A stretch of DNA of 64,000 nt from Patescibacteria group bacterium (GTDB taxonomy: Bacteria; Patescibacteriota; Minisyncoccia; UBA6257; Colwellbacteraceae). The stretch spans positions 11,748-75,747 of the forward strand of contig JAKJEF010000001.1 of NCBI GenBank assembly GCA_022705565.1. Direction: 5' to 3'. Below the pieces are notes generated by a model, which worked only from the letters and a program-made list of their open reading frames with translations, was not told the origin of the DNA and ran no database searches. Below, piece by piece: positions 1 through 40,862 of the stretch (the stretch's first letter is position 1; each line of letters starts with the position of its first letter). A program made the translations under genes and the position numbers.

Positions 1-795
1 GGACTAAAAAAGCTTATTGCTACCAGTTTTTCCGGTTCGCCGATTACCGGTAAACAACTATCAATTCTTGAAATGGAGGGCCTTAAAAACGAGAAAAAGA
101 AGGAGCCGTTAAAAATCGAAATAACCGAAGTGTTGGATAGCGATAAAGACGGCGCGATAAACATTGATGATGTAAAGGAATTATTAAAACGCTGCAAGAA
201 GACCGTTACGCCCCTTAAAGGCGGTGGAGATTTTCGTAGTGAAGAATGTATAGGACTTCTTAAACAAGCCGATATTATTTGTACTAATCCGCCTTTTTCT
301 CTTTTTCGTGAATATGTCGCGCAACTTGTAGAATACAAGAAAAAGTTCCTTATTATCGGCAATGACAACGCTGTAAAATATAAAGAAATATTTCCTCTTA
401 TCGTGGAAAATAGAATTTGGCGCGGTTATACAAGAATCAAAGAGTTTAGAAGACCTAACGGTAGCTTACAAAAGTTTGGTAATGTCGGTTGGTTCACGAA
501 TCTTGATATGGCAAAACGTCACGAAAAAATCACTCTTTACAAAAAATATATAAGAAAAGAATATCCAGAATATGATAATTATGATGCGGTCGAGGTATCA
601 AAGATTTCTGAGATTCCAATGGATTATGATGGCGTGATGGGCGTTCCGATTACATTTATAGATAAATATAACCCAGATCAGTTTGAAATTATTGGTATAT
701 CAAATGGGAATAATCGTGATAAGTATGCAATAGGTAAAATGGTGACCGTAAATAATAAGTCAACCTACGCACGAATTTTAATTAAAAAGAGATAA
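1..795 (+). CDS. N6-adenine DNA methyltransferase, EcoRI-methylase-like; 5' end truncated by window edge
   Basis: Frame 1 is open from nt 1 with no stop before ORF 73..795, so the gene begins upstream of the window. It has motif IV IICTNPPF (NPPF) typical of amino-methyltransferases. Overall it looks like the M.EcoRI family. Confidence 0.6.
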   Translation, partial: GLKKLIATSFSGSPITGKQLSILEMEGLKNEKKKEPLKIEITEVLDSDKDGAINIDDVKELLKRCKKTVTPLKGGGDFRSEECIGLLKQADIICTNPPFSLFREYVAQLVEYKKKFLIIGNDNAVKYKEIFPLIVENRIWRGYTRIKEFRRPNGSLQKFGNVGWFTNLDMAKRHEKITLYKKYIRKEYPEYDNYDAVEVSKISEIPMDYDGVMGVPITFIDKYNPDQFEIIGISNGNNRDKYAIGKMVTVNNKSTYARILIKKR

Positions 796-804
796 TTTTT
801 TAAT

Positions 805-1143
805 ATGGAGTTTCTAAAAAACTTAAAATTAAATAATTGGTGGAGTCTATTAGTATACATTGGATTCTTTGGAATAATTGGCTCGCTTTTTATTAAAACC
901 GATTTTGTAGACTCTAAAAATATTTTTGGAGTTTCTCTGGGCTTTTTATTTATCGGATTATCAACGTTATCTGCGATAAAAACTGCTATTAAATTTAAAG
1001 AAGCGAACGCATATACTGGCGGACCAGCAATACTTTGTTGGCCGATAATAAAACACAATTTCTTTTCGGGATTAATAACTTTAATCGGAGCGACATTAGC
1101 TGTTATTTTTGGAACAAGAACAATTGTTAGTTTATTTTGGTAA
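805..1143 (+). CDS. small integral membrane protein (3 predicted TM helices), unknown function
   Basis: 112-aa ORF, co-oriented with the upstream gene after a 9-nt gap. Hydrophobic segments WWSLLVYIGFFGIIGSLFI, IFGVSLGFLFIGLSTLSAI and GLITLIGATLAVIFG. The antisense ORF 765..1148 is judged spurious. Confidence 0.45.
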   Translation: MEFLKNLKLNNWWSLLVYIGFFGIIGSLFIKTDFVDSKNIFGVSLGFLFIGLSTLSAIKTAIKFKEANAYTGGPAILCWPIIKHNFFSGLITLIGATLAVIFGTRTIVSLFW

Positions 1144-1149
1144 AACAAT

Positions 1150-2241
1150 ATGGAAATTAAATTACATCAAATTCCTATACGCGAGGTAATAGCCGGTTAT
1201 AAGGATAGTCAAGAAGAAGGCGTGACAGCCTATAACGATAAATTAGATATCCGGCCGAAATACCAGCGTGAGTTTGTATATAAAGAAAAGCAACGCAATG
1301 CGGTGATAGAAACAGTCAAACAAGACTTTCCACTGAACGTGATGTATTGGATGATCCGTGAAGACGGCGGCTATGAAGTTCTGGACGGCCAGCAGCGTAC
1401 TATTAGTATCGGCCAATATGTTAACGGTGACTTTTCACTAAACGAAAGGTATTTCCATAACTTAACAAAAGAAGAGCAAGATCAGATTCTGGATTACAAG
1501 TTAATGATTTATTTCTGCGAGGGTACGGATAAAGAGAGGCTGGACTGGTTTAAAATCATTAATACCGTCGGTGAACAATTGACTGAGCAGGAAATCAGGA
1601 ATGCGGTTTATACCGGACCGTGGCTCTCGGACGCTAAATTAAAGTTCTCCAAATCAAATTGTGTGGCGTATTTACTTGCAAACGATGGCGGAAAACTACT
1701 TGAGGGTTCGCCGATTCGACAGGAATATTTAGAAACCGCACTTTCTTGGATTAATAACGGAAAAATCGAAGATTATATGGCTCGTCATCAGCATGATAAA
1801 AATGCCAACGAATTGTGGGAGTATTTCCAAAACGTGATTGAATGGACGCGAAAAACTTTTCCGAATTACCGTCGCGAAATGAGCGGAGTTAATTGGGGTG
1901 ATTTATACAACGAATTTAAGGATAAGAAATTTGACACCAAAAAATTAGAAAAAGAAATAGCCGAGCTTATGGAAGATGAAGATGTTACTAAAAAGTCCGG
2001 TGTTTATCCGTATATTTTAACGAGGAAAGAAAAATATCTTTCAATTCGCACTTTTACCGATAAACAAAAAAGGGAAGCATATGAAAGACAAAATGGTATC
2101 TGTCCGATATGCAGTAAACATTTCGGAATCGAAGAAATGGAAGCCGATCATATCACGCCTTGGAGTAAAGGTGGAAAAACAATCTCAGAGAACTGCCGAA
2201 TGCTCTGCCAGAAAGACAATAGAGAAAAGAGTAATATATAG
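1150..2241 (+). CDS. DUF262 (ParB/Srx-like, GmrSD N-domain) + C-terminal HNH endonuclease
   Basis: N-terminal half carries the DGQQR motif and surrounding pattern of DUF262. C-terminus has CPICSKHF...ADHITPWSKGG...ENCRMLCQKDN, a canonical HNH (His-Me finger) with flanking Cys pairs. Only a 6-nt gap from the upstream TM gene. Confidence 0.75.
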   Translation: MEIKLHQIPIREVIAGYKDSQEEGVTAYNDKLDIRPKYQREFVYKEKQRNAVIETVKQDFPLNVMYWMIREDGGYEVLDGQQRTISIGQYVNGDFSLNERYFHNLTKEEQDQILDYKLMIYFCEGTDKERLDWFKIINTVGEQLTEQEIRNAVYTGPWLSDAKLKFSKSNCVAYLLANDGGKLLEGSPIRQEYLETALSWINNGKIEDYMARHQHDKNANELWEYFQNVIEWTRKTFPNYRREMSGVNWGDLYNEFKDKKFDTKKLEKEIAELMEDEDVTKKSGVYPYILTRKEKYLSIRTFTDKQKREAYERQNGICPICSKHFGIEEMEADHITPWSKGGKTISENCRMLCQKDNREKSNI

Positions 2242-2329
2242 TTTTTAAATTATCCAGTCTAAAATCATCTATCTAGACTGTTGAAGGGCTATTCGGGGTC
2301 GGTTTTGAAATCTGGCTGGCTCGTCTCGG

Positions 2330-2692
2330 TTAGGATTTATGTTTATTATGATCAGATAGTGGCTCGTGTTCTTCGTGTATTATTTCTCCTGTCTGATTAT
2401 CTTTAACTACTTGGTCGTATTTGTTGTTTTCTCGGTCGATTGTTTGTTCTATACTAACGCCTTTAGATAGCTTTTTATCTCCACTCGACTTATATCCAGA
2501 GAATATCTCTTTAACAAATCTTTTAAATCCGGGTCGTTTTTGTTTAATACCTAATGATGTCTGAGTTTTAATAATTGCACGAATTTCTAATTTAATAAAA
2601 TTCGGTGTTTCTTGCTGACAGTTGTCACAAAACTTAGTTTTTTTTACCGATTTACAATTTGCACAGAGCAGTTTTTTATTAAACTCTTCCAT
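2330..2692 (-). CDS. hypothetical zinc-ribbon protein
   Basis: 120-aa ORF with CANCKSVKKTKFCDNCQ (C-x2-C...C-x2-C). The remainder is K/E-rich. Lies in the low-GC block. Confidence 0.4.
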   Translation of the reverse strand: MEEFNKKLLCANCKSVKKTKFCDNCQQETPNFIKLEIRAIIKTQTSLGIKQKRPGFKRFVKEIFSGYKSSGDKKLSKGVSIEQTIDRENNKYDQVVKDNQTGEIIHEEHEPLSDHNKHKS

Positions 2693-2699
2693 TGTATTT

Positions 2700-3269
2700 T
2701 TAAAAGAAAAACTCTTTTCCGATTTGCCATAAATAACGATCTAAATCTTTAGCGTTGAATTCGGTAAGTCCATAGAACTCCTTAAATTTGTTTAATATTT
2801 CGACAAATTTTTCATATTCTTTAATGTCTTTTCTTCTAAATTCATAAAAATCATCTCGCCTGCGGAAGTGCCAAAGCACTTTTTCTATAAAAGAATCATA
2901 GATCGGATAGCGTTCCGGGTAGTGAAAACTACAATACTTTGACGCAAAGGAATAAAATTTCTTATCTCCTCTTGGAGTTTTAACCTTCGCAATCTTATCA
3001 ATAATCCTATAATCACCACGTCTTAGATCTTCGTCGATGTTAAGCTTTAAAATATGTCTTGCAACCATGAACGGATAATAGAGGTTTGTGCTGTAAGCTT
3101 GATTCAAAAAATCAACTTTTATAAGAATATGTTCTATTTTTGTATTCTTGGGATAGGTCTTTTCAAAGAGGAGTCTCAGCGCTTTATCTTGAATAACAAA
3201 GTATTCTGAACGATCCCATTTCGCAAGATAATTCTTTACTATTTGAGATGTGGGCGTGGGTATAGGCAC
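2700..3269 (-). CDS. hypothetical protein (start uncertain)
   Basis: The ORF-track start at 3362 would overlap tRNA-Gln (3328..3401), so I chose an in-frame GTG at 3269, just downstream of a TATAAT-like box. AT-rich. I recognise no domain. Confidence 0.4.
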   Translation of the reverse strand: MPIPTPTSQIVKNYLAKWDRSEYFVIQDKALRLLFEKTYPKNTKIEHILIKVDFLNQAYSTNLYYPFMVARHILKLNIDEDLRRGDYRIIDKIAKVKTPRGDKKFYSFASKYCSFHYPERYPIYDSFIEKVLWHFRRRDDFYEFRRKDIKEYEKFVEILNKFKEFYGLTEFNAKDLDRYLWQIGKEFFF

Positions 3270-3327
3270 AGCTCGATTATAGCATTTTAAGACAACCCGC
3301 CTCGGTCGCGAGAAACTGCGCTCAAAG

Positions 3328-3401
3328 TGGCTGCCGGACCTGGATTCGAACCAAGATACCATGCTCCAGAGGCATGTGTCCTACCATTAGACGATCCGGC
3401 A
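3328..3401 (-). tRNA. tRNA-Gln (anticodon CUG)
   Basis: Reverse complement folds as a cloverleaf. Acceptor stem UGCCGGA/UCCGGCA with U1-A72, G73 and an encoded CCA. D-loop AATGGTA. Anticodon stem CATGC/GCATG with loop CUCUGGA (CUG). T-arm CTTGG-TTCGAAT-CCAGG. Confidence 0.8.
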
Positions 3402-4644: not shown

Positions 4645-5502
4645 TCAGAAGATATCCGTCGCTTTGGGTTTTTCTCCTTCGATCTGGATGATTTCGAGTT
4701 TCAATTTGCCGGTTTCATTGATTTTCGATTTCAAAAGTTTGACGCGTTTTCCGTTCAATATCGTCCAAGCTCCGGGTTCCGGATAAAAAGCCCGGATTTT
4801 ATTATGAATCTTTTTCGCCAACTCCGTATTTCCGGATTTGGCCGAAATTAAATCCTTTTCTTCGATAAAAGCCGATTCTGTTTTAAACTTTTCCGTGAAA
4901 GTCGCTTTGGTTTCGTCTTGGATTTCGGGGGTGATTTTTCCGTCAATAATGTCCGGCAATATTTCGACAAGCATTTTCGAAGAAAGCTCGGCCAGCTTTT
5001 CGGTTAAGGTTTCGCTGTTGTCGTCCGGATCGATCGGAATGGTTTTTTGCCGGAGAACCGGACCGTGATCCATCAAAGCGTCGATCAGGAAAAGCGATAC
5101 CCCGGTTCGGGTTTTGCCCTCTAGAATCGCGCTTTGAATGGGAGAGGCGCCACGAAGCTCCGGAAGTAAGGAGGGGTGAACGCCGACAACGCCCAAGCGG
5201 GGAATATCGATCAATTCTTGGGGCAGGATTTTGGCGTAAGCCGCAACAAGGTAAAAATCCGCCGGAATGGATTTAAGTGTTTCCAAGAACTCTGGTGTGA
5301 TCTTTTCTGGCTGGAGAATTTTAATGTTTTTTCCGGAATCGAGGACGATTTGCTTGGCCGGCGGGGGAGTGATCACGCGCTTCCGGCCAATCGGCTTGTC
5401 TAGACTCGCCACCACCGCTTTGGGAACAAAGCCGGCTTTGACGAGGTTTTTTAGGATAATGGCCGCGAATTCCGGCGTACCGAAGAAAACGAAATTATTC
5501 AT
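4645..5502 (-). CDS. fmt: methionyl-tRNA formyltransferase
   Basis: N-terminus MNNFVFFGTPEFAAIIL (the G-T-P-E-F-A signature) and formyltransferase core HPSLLP. I set the start at the internal ATG (5502) because the ORF-track N-terminal extension would overlap the upstream gene. Confidence 0.9.
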   Translation of the reverse strand: MNNFVFFGTPEFAAIILKNLVKAGFVPKAVVASLDKPIGRKRVITPPPAKQIVLDSGKNIKILQPEKITPEFLETLKSIPADFYLVAAYAKILPQELIDIPRLGVVGVHPSLLPELRGASPIQSAILEGKTRTGVSLFLIDALMDHGPVLRQKTIPIDPDDNSETLTEKLAELSSKMLVEILPDIIDGKITPEIQDETKATFTEKFKTESAFIEEKDLISAKSGNTELAKKIHNKIRAFYPEPGAWTILNGKRVKLLKSKINETGKLKLEIIQIEGEKPKATDIF

Positions 5503-5524
5503 TAAGAAAGAATCGGAAAAATCG

Positions 5525-7732
5525 TCATTCGGATTTCTTGAAGATATTGACGATACTTCCCATAAATTTATCGAGTTTTTCCAAATAGCTTCCTTCCGGC
5601 GGCCCTTCTTCGCGTATGCCGGTACCGAAGACTCTAACAATAGTTTCTTTAATGTCGGAATCGAGGAAACAGGAAGGATCGGGATTCGGAGCATCGTCTC
5701 TATTCCTGCATATCAGGGAATAAGTAGTGGTTCTTTGGGGAGCCACTCTTTCCGAGCTTCGAGAAGATAGGGGATTGTTTCCGGTTCTAGAAGAAGCATC
5801 ACCGGAGACAATGCCCATATTGCAGGAAATAGCGGTAGCAGAGCCTAGATATGGAGCCGAAGAATCCCAGTTAAGGGTAGAATACTTCCTGATCATTATA
5901 TCTTCGGAAGAATAGAGAATTTCCGTAGGAAGGGCGGTAAAGGTGACTTCCGGTTTTCCGACAACTCGGATTTGGGTTTTTCTCGCGCGGGAAGCGGAAC
6001 GGTCGTAGCAGTCGCGATCTTGTCCGATGACATCTCTTTTGCAGTTTTGTCCGTTCGGATCGCAATCGTAAGGTTCTCCGTAAATATCGGTATAAGTGCA
6101 GCATTCGTAATCGAGTTCGCATTGCATTCCGTATTCGGTGGTTCTTCCGGGATTGACGATGTCTTCTCCTCTGGAAGAAGTCTTCGCGGTCCAGTTTCCA
6201 CAAAGAGAATGGCAGGTGATTTCTTCGTTTTCTTTTCTTTCTCCCGAACCGCAGCTTGTGCTCGAAGAAGCTCTCCAAGTGACGGTCGCCTGGTTATCCG
6301 TCGCGGTAACGCATTGGTTCTCGTTGTCTTCGACCGTCAAAGTCAGTCCGGAACCGGTATCGGGCGGAAGAGTGCAGGTTGAGGACCCGGGACGACAGGA
6401 AGGTAAACAAGGACCCAAATCAGCATAACAAGTTCCGTATTTGGCCTTACATTGTTCTTCCGATTCGAATCTCGTGCTCAAGCAACTGTAAATCGGATCG
6501 CAGCGATAGAACTGCGTCAGGCTGCCTTCACATTCTTCTCTCGTTGAATAACATTTCTCGAAAGTTTCTTCGCATTCGTCTTTGTTTACAAAGGAGCCGG
6601 CGGGAACGCAAGAGCCAATATCCGGATTGAAGCGCCAGAACTCGTTTCCGAAAAACTTTCCCGAAGAACAATCCTCGTATTTTTTATCTTTCGGTCCGAA
6701 ACACTCGAATCCAGTTCCGTTTGCGCACTCCAGAGAGCTTGTGTATTTTCCTTTCTGGGGAACAAGGGTTTTATCTTCACAGGTATAGATATCTCTACAA
6801 AGATAAGAACATTCTTCTTTGGTTAAGCCGGCCCACAGGGTTTTATTGTTCACATAAATGCTCGCGAGATTGGGGTCGATACCAAAGTCGCTAAGAGTGC
6901 TGTATTTGCAGTTTTGCGACACATCACAGAAGAAAGGAATAGGATCGGGCGGAGGAGTCGGTTTACAGATACTCGCGCATTCTTCCGGATTAATAACAGC
7001 TCCTTTTTTCCATTCGCTGTGACTTCCGGCCGGGCAGACTCCTTCGGGAGGCGGGTAATTATCATTGGTTTCTCCGTGATAAGGAACCGAAGAGACAGGT
7101 TCCGTTGTGTGGTTGTCACAGCAGCATTTGTAGAAATTACCTGAACCTCCGGTGCAGGATCCGGCCCAAAGACCTTGGTTATCTGCTAAACATTGGTTGG
7201 AAGAACCTTGATCGGTGCACTTGTCGGCAGTGGAGTAAAGACGAGAGGTAATGCGGTAAAGATAAGATCGAATAAATCCCCATGGAGACCTATCAACACA
7301 TTCTTCAATTTGATATTTACTCCACGGAGAAAGCTTATTAGTTGTAGCTAAAGATAAACCCTGTAAAGTTTTTGCCGCTTGACCGCAAGAAATTCCCGGA
7401 CAGCCGTTAGTACTATTGACGCTATACGAAGTAGAACAAGTATTGTATGGATGGCAACCTTCTTGTCCTCCGGAATCTTGCCATAATTTCCATTGTCTTT
7501 GATACCATATTTCTTCTTCCAATGAATCCAATACGTTGCTATCCGATGGAATATATGTTTCCGGAACCTCGTCATAAGAAACACACTCGTCGCCTCGGCA
7601 CAGTCTCCCGTTTATGCATTGAAAATAACTATCTGGAGGGAAGTCTCCTTCCAAACATTGTTCTTGGGCGAAAACCAAATTAAAAGAGAAGGCACCAATA
7701 AGGAAAATTGTTAAAAAGACGAGCTTTTTCAT
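5525..7732 (-). CDS. large secreted cysteine-rich protein (735 aa, signal peptide, about 50 Cys, two Ig-like modules); family not recognised
   Basis: Signal peptide MKKLVFLTIFLIGAFSFNLVFA-QEQC. Cysteines throughout (KCCC, YECC etc). Modules QATVTWRASSSTSCGSG...RTTEYGMQC and STLNWDSS...AISC...RTTTYSLICRN. Paralog at 45009..47258. Confidence 0.85.
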   Translation of the reverse strand: MKKLVFLTIFLIGAFSFNLVFAQEQCLEGDFPPDSYFQCINGRLCRGDECVSYDEVPETYIPSDSNVLDSLEEEIWYQRQWKLWQDSGGQEGCHPYNTCSTSYSVNSTNGCPGISCGQAAKTLQGLSLATTNKLSPWSKYQIEECVDRSPWGFIRSYLYRITSRLYSTADKCTDQGSSNQCLADNQGLWAGSCTGGSGNFYKCCCDNHTTEPVSSVPYHGETNDNYPPPEGVCPAGSHSEWKKGAVINPEECASICKPTPPPDPIPFFCDVSQNCKYSTLSDFGIDPNLASIYVNNKTLWAGLTKEECSYLCRDIYTCEDKTLVPQKGKYTSSLECANGTGFECFGPKDKKYEDCSSGKFFGNEFWRFNPDIGSCVPAGSFVNKDECEETFEKCYSTREECEGSLTQFYRCDPIYSCLSTRFESEEQCKAKYGTCYADLGPCLPSCRPGSSTCTLPPDTGSGLTLTVEDNENQCVTATDNQATVTWRASSSTSCGSGERKENEEITCHSLCGNWTAKTSSRGEDIVNPGRTTEYGMQCELDYECCTYTDIYGEPYDCDPNGQNCKRDVIGQDRDCYDRSASRARKTQIRVVGKPEVTFTALPTEILYSSEDIMIRKYSTLNWDSSAPYLGSATAISCNMGIVSGDASSRTGNNPLSSRSSERVAPQRTTTYSLICRNRDDAPNPDPSCFLDSDIKETIVRVFGTGIREEGPPEGSYLEKLDKFMGSIVNIFKKSE
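7400..7732. repeat. dispersed repeat: 5' coding region of the Cys-rich gene, paralogous to about 46930..47258
   Basis: By-eye alignment of 7561..7660 with 47081..47180 gives roughly 75% nucleotide identity. The encoded N-termini are nearly identical. Confidence 0.55.
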
Positions 7733-8583: not shown

Positions 8584-9042
8584 CTAATCTTTGTGATCGG
8601 CGATCAATGTGCCGTTCAGATGATCGGTTTCGTGCTGGAATATTCTTGCGAGTAATCCCCAGGCTTTGATTTTCAGTTTTTTGCCGTTTTTATCCTGTCC
8701 GACAAGCGTTACTTGGTAAGGTCGTTTGATGCTTTTTTCCATTTCGGGAACGCTCAAGCATCCTTCTTCGCATTCGTCCATTTGCTTCGAAACACTCGTA
8801 ATTTCCGGATTGAAAATAACGTAAAACTTGCCTTCGTTCTGGGCGACGAACATCCGCCAGTCCAAACCGATCTGATTCGCCGAAAGCCCGACGCCTTTGT
8901 TCTCCTGCATCAACTTCCGCATTTTTTTGGCAACTTCGGCAATCTTCTTTTTGTCGGCTTTCTTGAAATCGAAATCCGGCACCCGTCCGTGAAGGATCTT
9001 GGCTTCGGATTTTTTATCTTCTACGGTGACTATCTTCATCAT
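8584..9042 (-). CDS. def: peptide deformylase
   Basis: Motifs GVGLSANQIG, EGCLSVP and QHETDHLNG (the HExxH metal site). Confidence 0.9.
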   Translation of the reverse strand: MMKIVTVEDKKSEAKILHGRVPDFDFKKADKKKIAEVAKKMRKLMQENKGVGLSANQIGLDWRMFVAQNEGKFYVIFNPEITSVSKQMDECEEGCLSVPEMEKSIKRPYQVTLVGQDKNGKKLKIKAWGLLARIFQHETDHLNGTLIADHKD

Positions 9043-9331
9043 CTTTTTCTTTTTGCCAGATGGCCATGAAATAGGCCCCTTTGTTCTTGATGTTCTTTTT
9101 CTCGGCGATCGATTTGGCGAGGCTCAAAAGCCTGTCTTCGTTAAACTCCTTCGCCAATTTGATATATAAGGATTTGTGGGCTCTATCGTCAAGGAGCTCG
9201 GCCATTTCGAGGCCGACCAACTGGTGTCGGGTGTAAACCCGGGATTCTTTGGCCCTTTCCTTTATTTTCCGGAAATAATCCGCGAAATCCCGCTTTTTTT
9301 CCTTTTTCCGGCCGGTTTTCATCGATTCCAT
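9014..9331 (-). CDS. hypothetical protein (105 aa)
   Basis: The ORF overlaps the def start by 29 nt and diverges from thpR with only 15 nt between start codons. No recognised domain. The start may lie further in. Confidence 0.35.
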   Translation of the reverse strand: MESMKTGRKKEKKRDFADYFRKIKERAKESRVYTRHQLVGLEMAELLDDRAHKSLYIKLAKEFNEDRLLSLAKSIAEKKNIKNKGAYFMAIWQKEKDDEDSHRRR

Positions 9332-9333
9332 TA

Positions 9334-9339
9334 TATAAT
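9334..9339 (+). promoter_or_regulatory. putative -10 box (TATAAT) 7 nt upstream of the thpR ATG
   Basis: ccattaTATAATactctcgATG, with no SD. Confidence 0.35.
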
Positions 9340-9346
9340 ACTCTCG

Positions 9347-9910
9347 ATGGATAAAAGAGTCTTCGCGGGAATCAATCTTCCTTTGGAAACAAAAGCAAAA
9401 ATCGAAGCGGCTTTGTTCGAAGCCGAACCTTTATGGAAGGGGATTATAAGCCCGAGAATCCTGGATCGGGAAAACTGGCATATCACTATGGGGTTTTTCG
9501 GGAAGAAAAGCGAGGCGGAGATCGAGCTTATCAAAGAAGCGATCGAAGAAACCGCCTCGGCTTTTCCTTTGCCGGAAATAAAATTAAAAAGAATCGTCTT
9601 TGGTCCGACCAAGGCTCGTGAAGCGAGAATGATCTGGCTCGAAGTCGAATCTAAAGATCTCAAGAATGTCAAAGAATCTTTCGATCGAAATCTCGAAAAA
9701 CGCGGAGTGATTTTGGAAAACAAAAAGTTTTCTCCGCACATCACTTTGGCGAGATTCGAGCCGATAGATTTCGACCGTTTACCACCTCTTAAAAAAGAAG
9801 TCGATCTCGATTTCCGGGCAAAGTCTCTTGATCTTATGGAGTCCGTATTATCGAGCAAAGGATCGACTTATACCTTGATTTCGGAAATAGACTTTGGAGG
9901 GGTAAAATAG
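9347..9910 (+). CDS. thpR: RNA 2',3'-cyclic phosphodiesterase / 2'-5' RNA ligase family (LigT/ThpR)
   Basis: Two H-x-T-x motifs (HITMGFFG and HITLARF). Start set at the internal ATG 9347 (MDKRVFAGINLP); the ORF-track 5' extension is judged non-coding. Confidence 0.8.
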   Translation: MDKRVFAGINLPLETKAKIEAALFEAEPLWKGIISPRILDRENWHITMGFFGKKSEAEIELIKEAIEETASAFPLPEIKLKRIVFGPTKAREARMIWLEVESKDLKNVKESFDRNLEKRGVILENKKFSPHITLARFEPIDFDRLPPLKKEVDLDFRAKSLDLMESVLSSKGSTYTLISEIDFGGVK

Positions 9911-9920
9911 TAAAATCCCT

Positions 9921-11165
9921 ATGATGAACCAGCTGCCGAAAAAGAGAATCCTTATTGTCGTTGTTCTCGCCCTTTTGCTTGCGGTCTCGACCGCCGGCTC
10001 TTTTTATGTCGGCTACCGTAAAGGCCTCGAGGAGACGAAAATCATCGAAATCAAAGGCGTGGCCGACATCAATCCGAACGAGGAGGTTTCGGCCGATTTC
10101 GGGGTATTTTGGCAAGCCTGGGACAAGATAAAATCCAAATACGTCAAAGCCAAAGACATCAAGGACCAGGATCTGGTTTACGGAGCGATCAGCGGCATGC
10201 TCGAAAGTCTCGGCGATCCTTATACCGTTTTCATGAATCCGGAAGAAGCCCAGAAATTCACCGAGGACGTTAACGGCAATTTCGGCGGCATCGGAGCCGA
10301 ACTGGAAAACCAGGGAGATTACGTCGTGGTCGTGGCGCCGCTCAAAGGAACTCCGGCCGAACGGGCCGGAATAAAACCCGGCGACATCATTCTGAAAGCC
10401 GGAGACACGGAATTGACCGATGTCGATGTTTTGGAGGCGGTAAAAGTGATCCGGGGAGAGCCGGGAACAAAAATCATTCTTTCCGTCATGCGCGAAGGAT
10501 TCACCGCACCCAAGGATTTCGAGATCACGAGGGAAATCATCGAGGTTCCGACCCTCGAGTGGTCCTGGCTCGATGATAAGATCGTCCACATCGAACTTTA
10601 CGGATTCAATCAGAACGCACCCGTCGCTTTTTACCGAGCCATCCTCGAGACCGTGCCCCAGGACACCAAGGGAATCGTCCTCGATTTGAGGAACAATCCC
10701 GGCGGATACCTTGATGTCGCCGTAAACATCGCCGGCTGGTTCCTTAAGCCCGGCGAAACCGTCGTCTCCGAGAAATTCGCGAACGGCGATCTCGACGTGC
10801 TGCGGGCTTCGGGAAACGGAGCTCTCCAAAACATGCCGACGATCGTTCTCGTGAACAGCGGTTCGGCTTCGGCTTCGGAGATCCTGGCCGGCGCGCTCCG
10901 CGACAACCGCAACGTTAAAATCGTCGGCGAAAAGACTTTCGGCAAAGGATCGGTGCAGACGATCGAGGACCTGAAGGACGGGTCGGTCCTGAAAGTGACG
11001 ATCGCGAGCTGGGTGACGCCCAAAGGATTGATTTTGAACGGCAACGGCATCGAACCCGATTACGAAGTCAAAATCACCGACGAAGACGCGGAAAACGACC
11101 GCGACCCGCAGCTCGAAAAAGCGCTCGAAATCCTGGAATCGCAAATCACGGCGACAGGAAATTAA
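9921..11165 (+). CDS. carboxyl-terminal processing protease (S41 peptidase with PDZ domain)
   Basis: PDZ region GIKPGDIILKAGDTELTD. S41 core GIVLDLRNNPGGYL...NSGSASASEILAGAL...GEKTFGKGSVQ. N-terminal TM anchor. Confidence 0.85.
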   Translation: MMNQLPKKRILIVVVLALLLAVSTAGSFYVGYRKGLEETKIIEIKGVADINPNEEVSADFGVFWQAWDKIKSKYVKAKDIKDQDLVYGAISGMLESLGDPYTVFMNPEEAQKFTEDVNGNFGGIGAELENQGDYVVVVAPLKGTPAERAGIKPGDIILKAGDTELTDVDVLEAVKVIRGEPGTKIILSVMREGFTAPKDFEITREIIEVPTLEWSWLDDKIVHIELYGFNQNAPVAFYRAILETVPQDTKGIVLDLRNNPGGYLDVAVNIAGWFLKPGETVVSEKFANGDLDVLRASGNGALQNMPTIVLVNSGSASASEILAGALRDNRNVKIVGEKTFGKGSVQTIEDLKDGSVLKVTIASWVTPKGLILNGNGIEPDYEVKITDEDAENDRDPQLEKALEILESQITATGN

Positions 11166-36142: not shown

Positions 36143-36213
36143 TGCGGGGTGGTGCAATGGTAACACGCCTGCCTTTGAAGCAGGAACTCTAGGTTCGATT
36201 CCTAGCCCCGCAG
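36143..36213 (+). tRNA. tRNA-Gln (anticodon UUG)
   Basis: Acceptor stem UGCGGGG/CCCCGCA with U1-A72 and G73. D-loop AATGGTAA. Anticodon stem CCTGC/GCAGG with loop CUUUGAA (UUG). T-arm CTAGG-TTCGATT-CCTAG. CCA is not encoded. Confidence 0.75.
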
Positions 36214-40499: not shown

Positions 40500-40529
40500 A
40501 ACCCCTCCCCGGTTCATCGGGGAGGGGTT
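40500..40529 (-). terminator. rho-independent terminator of rnpB
   Basis: Minus strand: AACCCCUCCCCG-AUGAAC-CGGGGAGGGGUU followed by UUUAUUU. Confidence 0.7.
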
Positions 40530-40857
40530 GGCAATCCATAAGCCGGATTCTGTTTGGACGATTATTTATCTAGGCCCTCGATCGCTCTCGGGCTCAAGCG
40601 ACTCTCCCCATTCGGGGCGCGGTCTTGCACTCCACAAGGATTTAGCCGTTTCACTTCCGTCTTTTTATCCCTATAACGGAATTAGACCATCGAGCTTGGG
40701 ATTGGGTCTTCCCTCGCCTTTCGGCTTGGGACGTCACTGCTCGCACCTCTTGCCTTACGGCAGCCAGCTTTTAACTGGTGTGTTTCCGCCTTATCAGCGG
40801 AAAGAGTCCGGACTTTCCTCTCTGTTTGTTGAAACAGAGCAATCGTCTGAATTACCG
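40530..40857 (-). ncRNA. rnpB: RNase P RNA, bacterial type A (compact, about 330 nt)
   Basis: Minus-strand transcript contains GAGGAAAGUCCGGACUC (P4 5' strand consensus GAGGAAAGUCCGGGCUC), a GUGAAA GNRA loop region, CCUAGAUAAAUAAUCGUCCAAACAGAAUCCGGCUUAU (compare E. coli ...CCUAGAUGAAUGACUGUCCACGACAGAACCCGGCUUAU) and P1 pairing GGUAAUUC/GGAUUGCC. Confidence 0.85.
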
Positions 40858-40862
40858 ATCAG

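Follow-up and report, generated by a model that had tools for sequence, protein, structure and literature searches.

Within a 64,000-nucleotide stretch of DNA from a Patescibacteria group bacterium (contig JAKJEF010000001.1 of assembly GCA_022705565.1, positions 11,748 to 75,747 of the forward strand; hereafter, the window), we studied a gene for a nuclease that joins an N-terminal DUF262 domain to a C-terminal HNH domain, together with the EcoRI-family N6-adenine DNA methyltransferase (hereafter, methylase) gene encoded upstream of it. Our favored interpretation, to which we assign a probability of roughly 55%, is that the two genes form a restriction-modification module whose nuclease is gated by nucleoside triphosphate (NTP) and lacks a sequence specificity of its own. 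The combination of a mosaic methylase, an evolutionarily frozen nuclease and an invariant NTP pocket suggests such a gated nuclease, either aimed by the methylase or reading its mark. That the pair constitutes a restriction-modification module we consider very probable, while the proposition that the nuclease is both specificity-less and NTP-gated, taken by itself, is more tentative and falls a little short of even odds.

Both domains that an initial annotation of this DNA had assigned to the nuclease, DUF262 and a canonical HNH, exceeded their Pfam cutoffs (Table 1): GmrSD_N/DUF262 (PF03235) spans residues 33–154 (E 5.6e-18; 66.2 bits, cutoff 33.2) and HNH (PF01844) residues 318–362 (E 7.5e-12; 45.6 bits, cutoff 21.4). 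The DUF262 assignment thus holds in the hidden Markov model search, and the HNH histidine and asparagine are intact. Besides DGQQR, the DUF262 domain contains a YQREF motif (residues 38–42), and the HNH domain reads C318-P-I-C321 ... D333-H334 ... N348-C349-R-M-L-C353 ... N357, with the catalytic D333-H334 encoded at nucleotides 2146–2151 and both N348 and N357 present; Cys318, Cys321, Cys349 and Cys353 are likely the zinc ligands of this domain. We scored residue conservation in 44 relatives of 36–57% identity. The residues of the nucleotide pocket (Q39, R40, D79, G80, R83, N138, Q147, E148 and N151) were invariant, and Q81 and Q82 of DGQQR were kept in at least 90% of these relatives; at the HNH site, C318 and N348 were invariant and H334 and C353 at least 90% conserved. 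The DGQQR and CPIC...H..N...CxxLC residues are therefore present as the initial annotation had written them and are conserved. The middle domain, a possible linker or DNA- or partner-binding domain, has three invariant residues of its own (W200, W232 and F237).

An AlphaFold model computed with the same 44 relatives (predicted local distance difference test [pLDDT] 93.5; predicted template modeling score [pTM] 0.78) consists of a mixed alpha/beta N-domain up to about residue 155, an all-helical part (157–297) and a beta-beta-alpha C-terminus. Its Foldseek matches included nucleotide-bound ParB (with CDP or CTP-gamma-S), Noc, PadC and sulfiredoxin. The DUF262 half thus has a conserved ParB/Srx-type NTP-binding fold and may use NTP; its description as a modified-DNA sensor is an assumption. 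In a PDB sequence search the HNH part alone gave a match, and a weak one (4h9d, E 0.0011). Pfam detected no DUF1524 in the nuclease, the C-terminus being a PF01844 HNH, and neither Pfam nor PADLOC nor fold searches revealed a superfamily-2 helicase-like ATPase.

Only the 3′ part of the methylase gene lies in the window. This fragment contains the NPPF motif and matches PF13651 (EcoRI_methylase; E 8.3e-87). Its complete form could be read from a public 179-kb contig (JAKQSW010000001.1 [L100], from the Candidatus Colwellbacteria metagenome-assembled genome GCA_029569665.1), where it measures 331 amino acids (positions 8996–9991; P0275) and covers positions 1–344 of the 345 in the PF13651 profile (E 1.9e-130). 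NPPF was invariant in 37 relatives of the methylase. The protein also matches the PADLOC model MTase_II (PDLC03297; E 9e-80) and shares 47–49% identity with its counterpart in an EcoRI-family system on an E. coli plasmid; the nuclease of that system is annotated as EcoRI-family, that is, as a member of another family than the DUF262–HNH proteins. A PDB sequence search found no solved relative of the methylase.

Clustered at 90% identity, homologs of the nuclease form at least 8000 protein clusters; at 50% identity, 507 cluster representatives have E ≤1e-30. These numbers place the module among the most widespread restriction-modification candidates. The best 120 clusters among the matches are 77–100% identical to the nuclease (closest distinct relative, 84%), and the names attached to them are those of Patescibacteria, Zixibacteria, Margulisiibacteriota, Chloroflexota and Planctomycetes. 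To gauge linkage, methylase genes were sought by tblastn in 80 loci from GTDB species genomes. In 77 of the 80, which are all of the informative loci, the nuclease gene is preceded on its own strand by an EcoRI-family methylase gene; the other three comprise only 463, 983 and 178 nucleotides of upstream sequence. The same order—methylase, then nuclease—recurs in Parcubacteria and Zixibacteria contigs and in plasmids of Aeromonas, Macrococcoides, Enterococcus and Paucilactobacillus, and a methylase is annotated adjoining the nuclease match (38–61% nuclease identity) in other plasmid hits, including those of Variovorax, Gordonia, Sulfitobacter and lactobacilli. Flavobacterium phage laban6-1, a virulent-looking phage, carries methylase and nuclease in this order beside its tape-measure gene (L095, 2778–5140), and a lambdoid prophage of E. 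coli A34 carries the module directly after antiterminator Q (L099, 5656–7778); both are accessory gene positions.

Across the 77 informative loci and the plasmids, phage and prophage inspected, we saw no nuclease without a methylase. This is the pattern expected if the methylase protects against the nuclease, and it argues against a stand-alone Type IV enzyme. In one organism, the two proteins are even fused in frame (P0141, 688 amino acids; L106, 4001–6067). A gene-calling artefact was rejected as the origin of this fusion: the junction is stop-free even under genetic code 11. The TGA codons of P0141 fall at conserved tryptophan positions, so its organism reads TGA as tryptophan. In its methylase half, FPSF takes the place of NPPF in motif IV, and motif I is altered as well, so this half may be inactive and serve as a DNA-binding module only. 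Given 77 of 77 informative loci, plasmids, a phage and a fusion, the initial annotation erred on frequency when it called the pairing with a methyltransferase unusual, although the word remains defensible with regard to mechanism.

PADLOC, too, already catalogues the family: the nuclease matches its REase_II model PDLC03418 over the full length (residues 1–362 on profile positions 1–371 of 372; E 9.6e-143), alongside the MTase_II model for the neighboring gene. The database's "Type II REase" label, however, designates a family and not a tested function. We sought the enzyme (REBASE entry) that seeded PDLC03418 and could not trace it. There is no NCBIfam family for the nuclease, the public annotations that we looked at read "DUF262 domain-containing protein" or "HNH endonuclease" only, and full-text literature searches returned no characterized pair of a DUF262–HNH nuclease and an EcoRI-family methylase. 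The module is thus very widespread yet apparently uncharacterized.

We compared the evolution of the two partners in 72–73 distinct loci of the subfamily. Mean pairwise identity was 0.83 for the nuclease (standard deviation 0.03) versus 0.64 for the methylase, and in 99% of pairs the nuclease was better conserved than the methylase. With a nonsynonymous divergence (dN) of 0.117 and a ratio of nonsynonymous to synonymous divergence (dN/dS) of at most 0.05, the nuclease is under strong purifying selection. Recent horizontal spread was rejected as the source of its high identity, since most pairs show saturation at synonymous sites. No segment of the nuclease was hypervariable, the lowest mean top-residue frequency in any 10-residue window being 0.70. 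The methylase, in turn, combines a core that is conserved (0.76) with two variable regions resembling cassettes, VR1 (about residues 185–227 of the EcoRI-family methylase) and VR2 (near the C-terminus). We distinguished at least 10 types of VR1 and at least 26 of VR2, which occur in 38 combinations in 72 loci. Nuclease identity was nearly the same within as between variable-region types (0.823 versus 0.828 and 0.835 versus 0.826), and no nuclease column was tied to VR1 type beyond the permutation null. In a syntenic Colwellbacteria relative, both VR1 and VR2 have been replaced, and the nuclease is 81% identical.

About 150–200 of the 331 methylase residues align with solved Rossmann cores (METTL5, KsgA, MmeI, M.TaqI and M.BseCI). 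The C-terminal part with the variable regions lies outside this alignment and is hence specific to the family. In gamma-class enzymes such as M.TaqI, target recognition is the task of the C-terminal part. A few residues separate the end of VR1 from the equivalent of M.EcoRI His235, which follows it, a position counted by hand from the alignment. The H235N mutant of M.EcoRI shows changed DNA intercalation and reportedly enhanced specificity (PMC2396439).

On the mechanism that we favor, the EcoRI-family methylase would place N6-methyladenine on host DNA as a self mark, and the nuclease, being without a sequence reader of its own, would cut or nick unmarked DNA through its HNH site, with the DGQQR pocket as an NTP-driven switch. 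Targets could be discriminated in either of two ways: the methylase might act as the specificity subunit, following the logic of Type III Mod/Res complexes, or the nuclease might sense the methyl mark itself, following that of SspE. The direction of discrimination, the use of NTP and the source of specificity are all elements that we infer. A mosaic methylase beside a frozen nuclease is the pattern of Type I and Type III systems, whose nuclease subunit lacks a specificity of its own, and not that of independent Type II nucleases. It is possible, if rather doubtful, that the module represents an undescribed class of restriction-modification system, in which a small, specificity-less nuclease has a ParB-type NTP switch in place of a helicase motor and is aimed by the methylase or checks its mark. 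If so, hosts could reprogram specificity by swapping two methylase cassettes while retaining one universal nuclease, and the module would be a major defense of Patescibacteria and many other phyla. CRISPR is mostly absent from the Patescibacteria (candidate phyla radiation), which are believed to depend on restriction-modification.

Several observations speak against a specificity-less, NTP-gated nuclease. M.EcoRI, a close relative of the methylase, functions on its own, next to a nuclease that is itself independent and sequence-specific, and PADLOC files the nuclease family as ordinary Type II. Residue 182 of the nuclease was marginally tied to VR2 type (adjusted mutual information 0.21; 95% of the null, 0.17). 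That the variable regions set methylase specificity is itself something we infer from their sequences. A survey of palindromes in host flanks (83 genomes, 725 kb in total) found all of them mildly depleted with no outlier (observed/expected ratios: GAATTC, 0.90; AATT, 0.96). Finally, other genes can be inserted between methylase and nuclease (see below), showing that tight co-translation is not required.

The main rival explanation is that of a classical Type II system, in which the nuclease would be an independent, sequence-specific HNH enzyme with one fixed site and all methylase variants would act on that site. The variable regions would then be surface decoration, and DUF262 would serve dimerization or DNA binding with no NTP switch. 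Both genes bear Type II labels in PADLOC, the two-gene layout with the methylase first is that of many Type II systems, M.EcoRI is itself a classical Type II partner, and a uniform nuclease would suit a uniform target. However, sequence-reading enzymes are rarely 83% identical at a dN/dS of 0.05 or less while their methylase drops to 64% and has two cassettes of its non-catalytic part reshuffled; nuclease and methylase variable regions show no co-variation; and the host flanks share no avoided palindrome. The invariance of the NTP-pocket residues (DGQQR and QR) further suggests that the pocket is used. To our knowledge, a ParB/DUF262 domain is absent from HNH-type Type II enzymes (KpnI, Hpy99I and others) and from McrA, whose N-terminal parts recognize sequence or 5-methylcytosine. 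We regard a classical Type II system as unlikely, albeit as the most serious competitor. Should the nuclease prove a plain Type II enzyme, it would still add a new family of HNH restriction enzymes rich in natural variants.

Far less probable is a Type IV, GmrSD-like enzyme that attacks foreign modified DNA, accompanied by a methylase that sets a different, non-target mark or has some other role. Such enzymes need no cognate methylase, yet every informative locus has one and a fusion exists; the DUF1524 domain is missing from the Pfam matches; and SspE and DndI exemplify DUF262 nucleases able to work with a modification module. Hence, of the two readings offered by the initial annotation, the Type IV alternative found little support, as we saw no member without a methylase; the evidence favors the other, in which a ParB-fold module forms part of a Type II-like system.

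Least likely of all, we consider a non-defense role, be it as a selfish addiction or homing cassette or as a DNA-processing pair of mobile elements (for packaging, or for anti-restriction methylation with an accessory nickase). Addiction behavior is a known side of restriction-modification systems and not an alternative to them. The occurrence of the module on plasmids, phages, prophage moron sites and islands and its spread across phyla would fit, as would the ParB-methylase and HNH genes found near terminase genes in some phages (PMC3592412), but no packaging or replication genes lie near the module in the window, and its positions in phage and prophage are accessory ones.

Several known systems come close to the module but differ from it. 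GmrSD and BrxU, Type IV enzymes for modified DNA that combine DUF262 with DUF1524, measure about 580 amino acids, compared to about 360 for the present nuclease. The latter amounts to a miniature GmrSD/BrxU/SspE build with a classical zinc-bearing PF01844 HNH where GmrSD has DUF1524; it is, moreover, always methylase-linked and predicted to act on unmodified DNA. In Type III systems, a methylase with a reshuffled recognition part stands beside a conserved NTPase-nuclease that lacks its own specificity. The reshuffled methylase next to a conserved nuclease, together with the one natural fusion, makes this a working analogy; Type III enzymes possess a helicase-like ATPase and a PD-(D/E)XK nuclease, in place of which the present protein has a ParB-like NTP pocket and an HNH. 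The EcoRI system shares the Pfam family of its methylase with the module, but R.EcoRI has a PD-(D/E)XK fold unrelated to the DUF262–HNH nuclease, the gene order is reversed (nuclease, then methylase), its target GAATTC is not avoided in the host DNA surveyed here, and the methylase described here has different variable regions. SspE, likewise a DUF262 nuclease, has a DNA-modification module as its partner and acts on unmarked DNA (as summarized in PMC8713573). SspABCD–SspE and DndBCDE–DndI, however, depend on a backbone-sulfur mark made by a multi-gene pathway, whereas the predicted mark here is N6-methyladenine set by a single methylase, and the nuclease differs from SspE and DndI in nuclease domain and size. 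If the nuclease indeed follows the methylase, the module would be a compact two-protein system with programmable specificity; it would also give a ParB/CTPase-type switch a new function and be the methyl equivalent of SspE, which senses phosphorothioate.

While methylase and nuclease abut or overlap in most loci, about 15 of the 80 have 0.4–2 kb of unrelated genes inserted between them (Table 1), encoding DUF2130, RhuM, T5orf172/MUG113, Bro-N, AAA_21/AAA_15 ATPase and membrane proteins. A DnaJ-domain open reading frame (ORF) lies immediately 5′ of the nuclease at one contig end, and a plasmid of Enterococcus dispar carries the resistance gene optrA in the gap. The methylase–nuclease gap is thus an insertion hot spot and, as such, a well-defined place to mine for embedded defense genes. 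Several of the inserted families also occur inside Type I restriction-modification operons.

In the window, the cargo of this gap is the 112-amino-acid membrane ORF. It is separated from the methylase by 9 and from the nuclease by 6 nucleotides, and these gaps, with all three genes on one strand, are consistent with the single operon that the initial annotation had proposed. Family searches returned no match for the ORF, and it has four homologs in 5.8 billion sequences, of which the two with a source name are labeled Colwellbacteria. A syntenic copy in a second Colwellbacteria genome (64% amino acid identity, dN/dS 0.28) shows that it is a real gene. In other loci, it is missing or unrelated genes take its place. 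We therefore rejected it as a conserved third component and regard it as lineage-specific cargo: of the proposed methyltransferase–transmembrane–nuclease order, the methylase and nuclease positions stood in all informative loci, and the transmembrane gene occurs in Colwellbacteria relatives only.

Table 1 Features of the module and its surroundings (positions refer to the window unless preceded by a locus number; aa, amino acids; nt, nucleotides)
Feature	Position	Strand	Remarks
EcoRI-family N6-adenine DNA methyltransferase gene, 3′ 795 nt	1–795	+	PF13651; gene begins 201 nt upstream of the window
112-aa membrane ORF	805–1143	+	Three hydrophobic segments; between methylase and nuclease; gap insertion
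DUF262–HNH nuclease gene	1150–2241	+	363 aa, ATG start, uninterrupted ORF
N-terminal ParB/Srx-like DUF262 domain, about aa 1–155	1150–1614	+	Putative NTP-binding switch; Pfam and Foldseek
DGQQR motif, aa 79–83	1384–1398	+	From the sequence itself
All-helical middle domain, about aa 156–300	1615–2049	+	Helices 157–297 in the predicted model
HNH (beta-beta-alpha-metal) nuclease domain, aa 318–362	2101–2235	+	Pfam PF01844
Weak terminator-like hairpin 3′ of the nuclease gene	2311–2334	+	Consensus scan, L100 11507–11530; pattern match only
Two ORFs filling the remainder of the island	2330–3362	-	Not part of the module
120-aa ORF	2330–2692	-	N-terminal CxxC...CxxC; no family
220-aa ORF	2700–3362	-	HI_0787_N (PF27257) from precomputed annotation; no match in a separate Pfam scan
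tRNA-Gln(CTG)	3328–3401	-	ARAGORN and Rfam; 3′ end faces the low-GC island
Gap insertion	L018 1402–2694
Gap insertion	L019 4175–5979
Gap insertion	L028 4085–5999
Gap insertion	L040 1858–3445
Gap insertion	L048 2421–3575
Gap insertion	L061 14–961
Gap insertion	L096 1164–3131

The public 179-kb contig contains an exact match to the membrane ORF and is 100% identical to bases 1–1200 of the window, so that window positions equal its positions minus 9196. Upstream of the methylase gene on that contig, a consensus scan yielded a strong terminator-like hairpin and a promoter-like site, both of them pattern matches. The window begins with 4 kb of low GC content (0.36–0.39 versus about 0.49 elsewhere), a genomic island in a Candidatus Colwellbacteria genome that ends at a tRNA-Gln gene (Table 1). 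With its 3′ end pointing at the island, this tRNA gene probably marks the boundary of the island or the site of its integration. The listed 5′ end of the neighboring 220-amino-acid ORF overlaps the tRNA gene, arguing that its true start is probably further in. The second Colwellbacteria genome carries the module at the same chromosomal spot (L103, 4762–15000) with other accessory genes around it, namely, Hypoth_Ymh, CYTH, a serine recombinase and a PycTM-like ORF. That spot resembles a variable defense island beside a block of sigma-factor and ABC-transporter genes.

Further into the window, a 735-amino-acid ORF (5525–7732, minus strand) with a signal-peptide-like N-terminus, very many cysteines and no Pfam match lies just downstream of fmt (4645–5694, minus strand; 285 amino acids in the public record). 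Housekeeping RNAs include the bacterial RNase P RNA, class A (40524–40858, minus strand; 107 bits, gathering score 100), and a second tRNA (36143–36213, plus strand).

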